A DNA stretch of 64,000 nucleotides from Clostridia bacterium (GTDB taxonomy: Bacteria > Bacillota > Clostridia > RGIG6154): assembly GCA_017410375.1 (NCBI GenBank), contig JAFQQW010000051.1, forward strand, positions 102,733 to 166,732, in the 5' to 3' direction. Position numbers and translations under genes: made by a program. Positions within the stretch are counted from its first letter, which is position 1. The number at the start of each line of letters is the position of its first letter. Of the stretch, positions 14,665-28,423 are shown one piece after another. The notes under the pieces were generated by a model. The model made no database searches. It was not told the DNA's origin and worked only from the letters and a program-made list of their open reading frames with translations.

Positions 14665-17600
14665 TTAATCAGGATATACTAATGTGATTTTAAATTTATT
14701 ACGCTTGTCATCTGATGTCCTGTATGATGATGCCGGCATTTCAGCAGTAGGCTCAATATACAAAGTGAAGTTTGTCGGATCATTCGGTCGTGATTCATTA
14801 CCGAAAACAGATGTTTCAACAGTAATTGTCTTATTTGTTTCAATGTTTGTAAACTCAACAATTGCTTTTACATTTTGTAAAACATTATCACTGATTTCAA
14901 ATTTGCCTCTAAACTGGTCAAGTGGAACAGCAAAACGCAACTTATTGTTTCCTGAACCCGCACCTGCATATTTAATTTCAAAAGGCTCAAATTCAGGTAA
15001 TGCACTTGAAACACTCGGCAGATTTGCTTTATTAGGATCATAAATTGGCTTCAACTTACTTTCAAAGCCGTCTGCTTTGGACTTTTGAGCAGACATAAGT
15101 GTTCCGCCACCTAATTTCTCTTTTATTCCATCAGTCTTTTCAACCGAAATAGTGTATTCAAACTTTGCATCCACGTCATTTACAGGAATAATAAACTCAT
15201 AAGGATATTCCTTATTTACAATCGTTTCAGTCTTTCCGTTCACTGTGTATTTGAGTGTTGCACTATTTGCTCTGTACTCTGATTTTGCTGTTCCGGGTTC
15301 TTTTCCGTCGGCATCAGTTACATAGATAAACGCATAATATTTATCAGGTGTGAGCTGCAATACATATCCTCTGCCACGATTGTGTTCGGAAACAGTTCCT
15401 CCTAAATCAGAACCATTCACAAAATTGCCTTTTTCAGCATAATTCGGAACTTTGATTGTCGGAATATCGAGTGCTACTGTTGTAATTCCTTTTGCAGGAA
15501 TTGTAATGGTAAACTTACCGTTAACAACCTCAGTTGTTGATTTGTTTCCTTTAGCATCATAAACTGTTGCAGCTCCTGAATAAGATGCACCGCCTTCAAC
15601 TTTTTCACCTAATGTGATGGTAGAGGTTACATCTCCTTTATCGGTGTTCATAAACGCAACTGCAAGCTTTCCCTCTTTTCTTGCAGGCAAGTAGTTGAGC
15701 AATACAGTGTCAGCTTCCACGATACCTCTGTCGTTCCATATCCACATATCTTCTAAATCATAAACCTTACCGGGTTCATAGCCATAGGCATTCTGACCAA
15801 AATATGCATAGCTTTCATGTCTTACGCTCGGAAAATTAATTGCCTGATCTGAACGAGCCCACGCATCTGTGATTAAGAAATCTTCAACAAAACCTAAGAA
15901 TGTCGGAATGTGGTGATAATAAAGCTGTGTTGTATCAGGTCCAACATAAGGATAATCAGGTTTCATCTGATGAACGCTGTATGTCCACACATAGTAACCG
16001 GGATAGTTTGCATATCTGCCGATGATAGCATTTTTAGCTAAATCATAGAAATATTCTTCACCTGTGTACTCAGAAAGTCTTACCATATCAGCTGCCCACG
16101 CAGACATTACCTGACATCCCGAGTCTGCAATTTCGTGACCTGTACCCGACTCAATACCTATACCTACACGAGTCGGCAACCATCCGGGAACTGTTTCTTC
16201 TTCAGGAAGAAGCTCTGTTTCTTTGCCGCGAAGTGTCCATTGTTCTTCACCATGCCAGTAGTGGCTGGCAGCAGTTGCAACCGCACCCGAGTGTTCTAAT
16301 ACTTCTTCACGCTTGATTACAATATCTTTATCAGATTTTCCGTCCTGAAAACCCATTGTAAAGGTTGTCGCCGCAAGCATTCTGCCTGTTTTCTCAGCAG
16401 CGTCAAGATATTTTTGTTCTCCTGTAATTTCATAAAGGCCAAGCAAAGTTGAAAGGTTGGGATAAAAATCAATATTTGTAAATTTCACCCAGTCTCTTTC
16501 ACTTGTCATATATTCTTCGTTTCCCAAAGTAGCTTCAATGTACGCATCACCATATTTTTTAGCTTCATCAAGATATTTTTGTTCTCCTGTTACCTGATAA
16601 AGTGTTATAGCGTTAAGTGTTGTATGGAATGGACCGATATTTGCACCACCTGCAACACCCATTTCTTCAGCAAGTCCTAACATAAACGGTGACTGACCTT
16701 GTGTAAGATTGTATGCACCTACATATGTACTTGATGGGAAGGATCGGTTATATCCACCTGTTGCAATCGGCAAGTTGGGCGTATACATTGTGTTCATATC
16801 CATTGAACGCTTAAAATGATAGTAATTTCTGCCAATCAGATTAGCGAGTGTCGGAATTGCTCGTTTTTCTAAAATATCTTCGTTACCTGTAAGTAAAAAT
16901 CTCTGTGTTGCAGCTAATGGTGTAGAAAGTGTTGAAACACCTTTCGCTTCTTCGTTCCAATGTGCTTTGTGGATATCATCCCATCCGCCGTACCAATCAT
17001 CCATCATAAGATCGGTTGCATTATAAATTGCATCATTAAGCGAAGCATAGTAATTGTTTCTTCCGTCATGGTAATTATAATAGTTTGTGACAATACTCTT
17101 GTAAGATTCGAACCAATCTTTCAATTCATTTACAGGTCTGTAGGTAAATGAATATGTGTCACCGGGATTGAATTTTGCATTTTCATATCCCATAATCGGT
17201 GCTGCAATTACACCAAGCAAACCTTGCGACGCACCTCTTAAGCCACCCATGAATGTTGAATTTGAATCATAAGTCCAATCAGGAATCAATGAACCTTCAA
17301 CCGCAACACCTCTTGTCAAAGGTTTGTTAAATCCTGTTTTATCCGAAGCGATAGTTACAGTTGATATAGGTGTAAACATATATTTAGCAATAACCATTTT
17401 AGCACTATCAGGAGCACGTCTTTCAATTGAAATAAACGGCATTGTAACAGCGTCCATATCGCTGTCAATTACTTCTCCGCCATTTGACATAACAAAAGAA
17501 TAGTTACCTTTCTGTGAGAAAGTTGCATTAAGTGTTACCTTCGGCGCATCAGCCAAACTGTCAAACTCCCATGTTTCAACTACAGATGCACCGTTTACAT

Positions 17601-28423: not shown

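Follow-up and report, generated by a model that had tools for sequence, protein, structure and literature searches.

The subject here is a pair of giant proteins, E1798 and I1666, encoded in a 64,000-nucleotide stretch of DNA from a Clostridia bacterium (the window: positions 102,733 to 166,732 of contig JAFQQW010000051.1, assembly GCA_017410375.1). In our view both are probably secreted, surface-held enzymes that cleave glycans, and they represent an uncharacterised family built around a six-hairpin barrel, which is without a name, a solved structure or an activity in Pfam, NCBIfam and the PDB. Catalysis itself, the type of bond cut and the substrate are what we infer, from a combination of modelled fold, conserved residues and genomic company.

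Two giant secreted paralogs

An earlier note on this DNA had singled out two open reading frames (ORFs) as paralogs sharing a collinear core, and both are indeed there, with the same coordinates, strands and lengths (Table 1). BLASTP aligns residues 458-1688 of E1798 collinearly with residues 97-1454 of I1666, at 26% identity in 1408 columns, and an E value of 4e-110 over some 1400 columns places their paralogy far beyond chance. The short motifs that had drawn attention to the pair can all be read in the two translations, as GDTYSFTYRP in E1798 and GDTYTFSYRP in I1666, and likewise YANYPGYY and FANYPGYY, YYHHIP and YFHHAP, AINFP and KVNFP, and EYPYEFIIPV and NFPYEFFIPV. Both proteins open with a Sec-type signal peptide, read by eye from the translations, and the description of them as secreted multimodular paralogs stands, each having a signal peptide, the shared core and accessory modules.

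When 270 barrels of the family are grouped, that of E1798 falls in the main Firmicutes clade and that of I1666 in a small divergent one; among the relatives, the barrel most like that of I1666 belongs to a protein that we call P0033, which was grouped with it by inspection. A protein identical to E1798 is encoded on seven metagenome contigs, and a different scaffold from the same sample carries three more giant proteins with a Cu_amine_oxidN1 domain beside an AraC gene, at least one of them (P0019) being a member of the family.

What is the fold of the core?

The structure check that had been proposed for the core, looking for an (alpha/alpha)6 toroid or beta-helix and for acidic catalytic pairs, was run and found a predicted toroid with invariant acidic residues. 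Residues 690-1700 of E1798, aligned with 32 homologs, gave an AlphaFold2 (AF2) model with a predicted local distance difference test score (pLDDT) of 88.5 and a predicted template modelling score (pTM) of 0.90, in which, in core numbering, residues 1-290 are all-beta, 294-714 form a 12-helix barrel and 720-845 a beta-sandwich, while 868-966 make up one more beta domain, home to the PYEF motif that is near-invariant in the family alignment. This core is larger than the roughly 850 residues first suggested: on the evidence of the E1798 model and of minimal homologs it spans about 1000 residues, or about 1140 with the binding module that the family conserves. A model of the barrel alone (pLDDT 84.9, pTM 0.88) has 12-14 helices, in keeping with the approximately 12 helices in six hairpins of the six-hairpin superfamily, and all of its significant Foldseek matches are six-hairpin proteins. 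Against the PDB these matches comprise AGE epimerases, glycoside hydrolase (GH) families GH76, GH9, GH88 and GH127, and polysaccharide lyase (PL) family PL27, all with probability 1.0, E values of 3.6e-5 to 5e-3, template modelling (TM) scores of at most 0.58 and identities of 10-16%.

The statement that the core cannot be assigned to a known family has been borne out in searches of Pfam, NCBIfam, PDB sequences and profiles, and Foldseek. No significant match to the core was found in Pfam, NCBIfam or the PDB sequences, and when profiles built from 33 and from 59 family sequences were run against all PDB sequences the best E value was about 1e-3, for a GH76-like hairpin motif, with PL35, PL2 and GH88/GH105 also among the weak matches. 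The lone catalytic signal that Pfam offers is PF07944 (GH127) on E1798, at E 3.6e-4 and 20.1 bits against a cut-off of 24.9, and it covers one helix hairpin, profile positions 132-205 of 376. The same profile appears below threshold in 5 of 25 long family members (best E 7.7e-5) and in precomputed annotation of three homologs; the Pfam scan of I1666 gave no PF07944 match.

The cellobiose 2-epimerases of AGE type, the GH76 alpha-1,6-mannanases, GH88/GH105 and GH9 have the barrel fold in common with the core, but these generic six-hairpin enzymes are mostly single-domain proteins of about 350-430 residues, whereas the core is multidomain and resembles them at TM scores no higher than 0.58. The GH76 match in particular lies on a helix-hairpin region and not on the family's Asp-Asp position, which is only partly conserved.

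Several other candidates were tried and set aside. GH101 has the top E value in the whole-core Foldseek search, but the alignment (TM 0.2, root-mean-square deviation about 22 Å) overlaps in the beta-sandwich only; GH101 endo-alpha-N-acetylgalactosaminidases have a (beta/alpha)8 catalytic barrel, and the central domain of our core is all-alpha. PL33 enzymes are made up of Heparinase II/III-like and DUF4962 domains, and Pfam matches to neither were found in E1798 or I1666 at E values up to 0.1. GH160, the exopolysaccharide hydrolase of Nostoc, has been described as related, very distantly, to PL9, which is a different fold family. That the gellan lyase of Bacillus/Paenibacillus sp. GL1 might be a member, a lead suggested by its huge precursor, found no support: none of 69 homologs from Paenibacillus and Clostridia has a gellan-lyase-type name, their clusters being called 'hypothetical' or 'SLH domain-containing', and the published gellan lyases sit in another family, PL33, described together with its hyaluronan and chondroitin lyases in PMC6442616.

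How widespread is the family?

A word-index search returned only 34 relatives; 106 came to light when 185,579 species genomes were scanned for a pattern. These lie in at least five phyla with a record of degrading polysaccharides: Firmicutes, Bacteroidota, Verrucomicrobiota, Planctomycetota and Acidobacteriota are all represented, with Paenibacillus, uncultured Clostridia, Opitutales, Kiritimatiellia, Lentisphaeraceae, Pedobacter, Chitinophaga and Niabella among the taxa. A search of 1.84 billion representatives with a hidden Markov model (HMM) of the barrel found 641 clusters at E<=1e-3, 325 of them at E<=1e-30. Gram-negative members are typically about 1140 residues long and consist of the binding module plus the core; Firmicutes members reach 1500-2500 residues and add SLH, Cu_amine_oxidN1, dockerin, Laminin_G_3, F5/8 type C, CBM35 or LRR domains.

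Across the 270 barrels, 16 polar residues are conserved in at least 90% of sequences. In E1798 numbering these are D999, R1001, N1014, E1038, R1067, R1078, E1304, R1349, Y1353, Y1356, Y1357, D1376, Y1381, H1383, H1384 and D1394, and E1304 is present in every barrel. All 16 are retained in E1798 and, on residue-by-residue mapping, in I1666, and in the model most of them appear to fall in the loops between helices.

Paralogs accumulate in some genomes. An Opitutales metagenome-assembled genome (MAG) encodes five, of 1020-1147 residues and each with a signal peptide, head to tail on one strand (locus L060, 6018-22774). In the uncultured Clostridia MAG CALXJH01, at least nine family ORFs in all occur on eight contigs, seven of which are L007, L012, L015, L021, L022, L023 and L061, a copy number that is a strong lineage-specific expansion.

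In what genomic company do the relatives occur?

Neighbourhoods were clustered using the ORFs of 84 loci and the window. In 81 of these (the window and 80 loci) there are 122 family ORFs, and the Opitutales contig has as many as five, so that tandem paralogs are the rule. The suggestion of a glycan-processing context is well supported by these relatives, whose loci are overwhelmingly glycan-degradation loci. The most regular arrangement is found in Bacteroidota, where Pedobacter, Chitinophaga and Niabella (loci L045, L048, L052, L057, L066 and L073) keep the order SusC, SusD, DUF5017, a family member of about 865 residues, a second of about 1135, a GDSL esterase, GH97, a third member of about 945, an FAD_oxidored protein (PF12831, about 760 residues) and a sodium:solute symporter, sometimes with GH2, GH106 or DUF4886 added. 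The PF12831 protein and the symporter each stand beside the family in 18 loci. This polysaccharide utilisation locus, with up to three paralogs, is apparently undescribed, and full-text literature searches for a characterisation of the family or of this locus found nothing. Its first paralog, of about 865 residues, matches the barrel profile only in fragments (L045:8423-11011; L052:8426-11029) and has a sub-threshold GH88 match, and may contain a degenerate or strongly diverged barrel.

Elsewhere the company differs. In Paenibacillus the family shares its loci with a sugar ABC transporter, with a histidine kinase paired with AraC, and with an SDR protein alongside an enolase-superfamily dehydratase; some of these loci also have GH97 and one has PL8 and chondroitinase-B genes. 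Other loci contain GH78, GH106, beta-helix proteins and sulfatases. GH78 and GDSL/SGNH esterases are seen in SusC/SusD/DUF5017 loci too, and GH97, GH2, GH78, GH106 and esterases count as recurrent neighbours overall. In loci of Clostridia type the only recurring features are AraC regulators, SLH proteins, ABC permeases and an occasional GH38 or GH78. What finds no support is the idea of a dedicated local system around E1798 and I1666, since in 88 related loci the MocA, BNR and creatininase genes of the window recur beside family members in none; of the neighbour types in the window, only AraC-type regulators and further paralogs recur. The conserved feature is the giant proteins and not the local gene set.

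What might these proteins do?

Our favoured mechanism runs as follows. The conserved unit consists of a Malectin/Golvesin-like module, a beta-sandwich of about 290 residues, an (alpha/alpha)6 barrel of about 430 residues and two C-terminal beta domains, with the barrel as the putative catalytic domain. Loops bearing D999, R1001, N1014, E1038, R1078, E1304 and R1349, together with Y1353/1356/1357, D1376, Y1381, H1383/H1384 and D1394, would shape the pocket of the barrel, and glycosidic bonds of a complex heteropolysaccharide would be cut there, outside the cell. Attachment to the substrate and to the cell surface would fall to the additional binding modules and the Cu_amine_oxidN1 domain, E1798 and I1666 may have different sub-specificities, and after import of the fragments cytoplasmic enzymes, controlled by AraC, would complete the breakdown. 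Judging by residue types and context, we lean towards an inverting Glu/Asp hydrolase, with beta-elimination distinctly less favoured and a small share of credence left for other chemistries. The SLH, dockerin, CBM35, F5/8 type C and Laminin_G_3 domains of the relatives are typical of secreted carbohydrate-active enzymes and so support the enzyme reading.

There are of course points on the other side. No member has a demonstrated activity, and the names in NCBI and UniRef are 'hypothetical' or are taken from an accessory domain; the top Foldseek matches of the barrel are epimerases and isomerases and not glycosidases; a single pocket shared by the conserved residues is inferred rather than taken from model coordinates; the conserved Arg, Tyr, His and Asn are no less suited to a lyase or to uronate binding than to a hydrolase; and neighbourhoods vary so much by phylum that no single substrate emerges.

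The residue pattern just mentioned leads directly to one alternative, namely that the family are polysaccharide lyases, in which a Tyr/His base and acid would drive beta-elimination beside a uronic acid while Arg and Asn neutralise its carboxylate. This would make good use of R1001, R1078, R1349, Y1353, Y1356, Y1357, Y1381, H1383, H1384 and N1014, and would sit comfortably with the weak profile matches to PL35, PL2 and GH88/GH105, with the PL8 and chondroitinase-B genes of the one Paenibacillus locus, and with the nearest multidomain structural match, the PL27 L-rhamnose-alpha-1,4-D-glucuronate lyase (BACCELL_00875, 5no8), which has the widest multidomain overlap among the whole-core Foldseek matches listed (E 8e-7, TMt 0.37). 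In PL27 an N-terminal beta-sandwich leads into an (alpha/alpha)6 barrel (PMC8377490), the very architecture of the AF2 core model, and the GH78/GH106 rhamnosidases that recur close to family members provide a further link. However, the likeness to 5no8 is at the level of fold (for the barrel, Foldseek E 1e-3 and TMq 0.44), identity is 11-14%, and PDB sequence and profile searches found no match to it at E values up to 10. PL27 has about 670 residues against about 1000 in the core, which adds two C-terminal beta domains and an N-terminal binding module, and lyase chemistry of the PL27 kind is for the core a putative analogy. Moreover, the 88 loci show no recurring unsaturated-uronyl hydrolase of GH88/GH105, and the sole residue conserved in every barrel is a Glu, with four more acidic residues kept, as would be predicted of a hydrolase. 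We consider a lyase unlikely.

It is similarly improbable, we believe, that the core already sits in a CAZy family that lacks a Pfam or NCBIfam model and a solved structure, or that it is a very distant subfamily of GH127/GH146. Many recent CAZy families have no Pfam model, and the GH127/GH146 beta-L-arabinofuranosidases (PF07944; HypBA1, 3wkw; BT3674, 6ex6) resemble the core in having a six-hairpin barrel and beta-sandwich domains, are matched by Foldseek (3wkw, 7dif and 6ex6) and form the only catalytic family in Pfam with repeated sub-threshold matches, in E1798, the 5 of 25 long members and the three homologs already mentioned. Yet PF07944 stays below its gathering score and touches one hairpin, the domain order is unlike (in the core the beta-sandwich comes before the barrel), and GH127, as known from HypBA1, relies on a nucleophilic Cys within a Cys3-Glu zinc site, whereas in the 270 barrels none of the columns with at least 90% conservation is a Cys; on the profile score and the Cys the core does not qualify for GH127/GH146. 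As for the wider version of this alternative, NCBI and UniRef name all members hypothetical and the full-text literature searches came back empty.

Finally, a role as non-catalytic adhesins or glycan-binding scaffolds, with a barrel for binding or structure, might be read into the abundance of modules for binding and anchoring (in E1798, three Malectin/Golvesin copies and Cu_amine_oxidN1; in relatives, SLH, LRR_5 and cadherin-like domains), the unconserved local gene set and the degenerate barrel match of the 865-residue Bacteroidota paralogs, but it is very unlikely, given that 16 polar residues kept at 90% or more across phyla at about 25% overall identity are an active-site pattern and that the minimal Gram-negative homologs are the core only, at enzyme positions in SusC/SusD loci.

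If the proteins are indeed secreted glycan-cleaving enzymes, the hints as to substrate point three ways. GH78, GH106, the esterases and the PL27 fold suggest an acetylated glycan with rhamnose or uronate; a GH97 nearest to alpha-galactosidase and a galactonate-type dehydratase, of an oxidative pathway, suggest galactose-type sugars; and in Clostridia the GH109-like MocA neighbour (E 4e-17) and a GH129 next to P0033 suggest alpha-GalNAc. These hints are mutually inconsistent, and the family may well be polyspecific.

Why does the family matter?

The family is broad, confidently modelled and expanded in gut Clostridia, and with its core boundaries and 16 conserved residues it supplies defined targets for activity screens. 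Should it prove catalytic, gut Clostridia, soil Paenibacillus, Bacteroidota, Verrucomicrobiota and Planctomycetota would gain an unclassified enzyme family, and a conserved but unannotated polysaccharide utilisation locus of Bacteroidota would gain a role; one gut Clostridia MAG alone has at least nine family ORFs, spread over eight contigs, so the substrate is probably important to such bacteria. A bolder proposal, which we hold tentatively and rate as somewhat less than probable, is that the barrel defines a CAZy family not yet recognised, GH or PL, whose distinct catalytic apparatus lies around Glu1304 and the motifs R-x3-Y-x-G-Y-Y and Y-x-H-H, and which acts on a complex glycan that has no known depolymerase; the tandem paralogs and the FAD-oxidoreductase-like neighbour of 18 loci could then belong to a multi-enzyme, possibly redox-assisted pathway. 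It is not unusual for glycan loci to contain unannotated six-hairpin families.

Accessory modules and neighbours in the window

Table 1. Coordinates of the two giant proteins, their domains and their neighbours (positions in the window; aa, amino acids)
Feature	Position	Strand	Description	Basis
E1798	14665..20061	-	1798 aa, secreted, multimodular; major Firmicutes-type clade	ORF, translation, BLASTP, clade assignment
E1798 signal peptide	19990..20061	-	aa 1-24, ending ...TSFA/AD	read from translation, without a predictor
E1798 binding modules 1 and 2	18937..19956	-	aa ~36-185 and ~222-375; Malectin/Golvesin_C-like
E1798 Cu_amine_oxidN1	18517..18837	-	aa 409-515	Pfam E 4e-37
E1798 binding module 3	18058..18504	-	aa ~520-668; copy kept family-wide as N-terminal module
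E1798 N-terminal beta-sandwich region of core	17128..17994	-	aa 690-978	AF2, all-beta, pLDDT mostly >88
E1798 (alpha/alpha)6 six-hairpin barrel	15835..17127	-	aa 979-1409; putative catalytic domain	AF2, Foldseek
E1798 two C-terminal beta domains of core	15082..15834	-	aa 1410-1535 and ~1555-1660	AF2
E1798 C-terminal tail domain	14668..14994	-	aa ~1690-1798	outside confident model
I1666	23423..28423	+	1666 aa, secreted paralog; small divergent subclade (11 of 270 barrels)
I1666 Malectin/Golvesin-like module	23930..24412	+	aa ~170-330	BLASTP to E1798 module 2, E 5e-11
I1666 six-hairpin barrel	25475..26827	+	aa 685-1135	HMM domain coordinates
I1666 C-terminal tail	27743..28420	+	aa 1441-1666	weak likeness to C-terminus of 768-aa neighbour
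Gfo/Idh/MocA oxidoreductase	20096..21235	-	directly upstream of E1798; no signal peptide	Pfam
AraC-family regulator	21436..22242	+	first gene of plus-strand unit	Pfam HTH_18, HTH_AraC, AraC_binding
BNR_2 sialidase-like beta-propeller	22262..23380	+	intracellular; no signal peptide	Pfam E 1.4e-21
Creatininase-family amidohydrolase	13821..14615	-	downstream of E1798	Pfam E 5.5e-49
768-aa secreted protein	11387..13693	-	last gene of minus-strand unit	signal peptide read by eye
Terminator-like hairpin	28445..28470	+	after I1666; 9-bp stem, 7 G-C pairs, T-run	consensus match only

E1798 has three copies of a Malectin/Golvesin_C-like module of about 170 residues, of which the first two are 47% identical to each other and the third 30% identical to them; Pfam scores Malectin at 37 bits and Golvesin_C at 36.5 bits on modules 1 and 2, both above cut-off. 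The third aligns with the N-terminus of the minimal homologs of about 1140 residues, and a profile of its region weakly matches the CBM6 structure 2cdp (E 0.02). I1666 gave no Pfam match at all, its binding module included. The Cu_amine_oxidN1 domain, present in 11 of 25 long family members, is probably a cell-surface spacer or anchor. Beyond core residue 985 the AF2 pLDDT of the E1798 tail falls below 50, although the family consensus contains a repeated tail motif, and the likeness of the I1666 tail to the neighbour's C-terminus has BLASTP E values of 2e-6 to 7.5e-7. The contrast in accessory modules that the earlier note drew thus holds for the binding modules of E1798, the single one of I1666 and the tail of the latter, but where it saw several copper-amine-oxidase-like stalks there is one such domain. 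A secreted GH16 protein of the window (46999..49146, minus strand) is likewise fused to Golvesin_C and Cu_amine_oxidN1, which marks these modules as the organism's standard decorations for secreted glycanases.

The genes themselves form a minus-strand unit (Gfo/Idh/MocA, E1798, the creatininase-family gene and the gene for the 768-residue secreted protein) and a plus-strand unit (AraC, BNR_2 and I1666, followed by the strong terminator-like hairpin), and all five neighbours are as first described. The closest solved relative of the MocA protein is the Akkermansia GH109 protein 6t2b, a match (E 4e-17) that covers the Rossmann half only, and there is a weak precomputed match to Glyco_hydro_109_C; instead of a dehydrogenase, the protein may be an NAD-dependent glycosidase. 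The likeness of the BNR_2 protein to solved sialidases is confined to the level of Asp boxes, every NCBIfam match of the creatininase-family protein is under cut-off, and the 768-residue protein matched no family in Pfam or NCBIfam. Directly after I1666, a 163-residue ORF (28896-29387, plus strand) encodes just the helix-turn-helix half of an AraC-type protein, and is maybe a truncated regulator.

On the far side of the minus-strand unit lies a secreted protein of 1173 residues (6687-10208, minus strand) with no Pfam or NCBIfam match, in which a module closing with motifs like RLDFLVISEQP can be seen by eye to repeat three or four times; these ends recall those of the Malectin/Golvesin-like modules in E1798 (FARFDLVVITDD), a similarity that BLAST does not see. 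Just past the glycan genes, a protein of 1827 residues with RHS/YD repeats (1190-6673, minus strand; Pfam RHS_repeat E 4.7e-34) is followed on the same strand by a small ORF without a match (733-1215) and by a 184-residue ORF in which the RHS repeat returns (124-678), and this stretch has the look of a polymorphic-toxin locus that keeps a C-terminal cassette in reserve.

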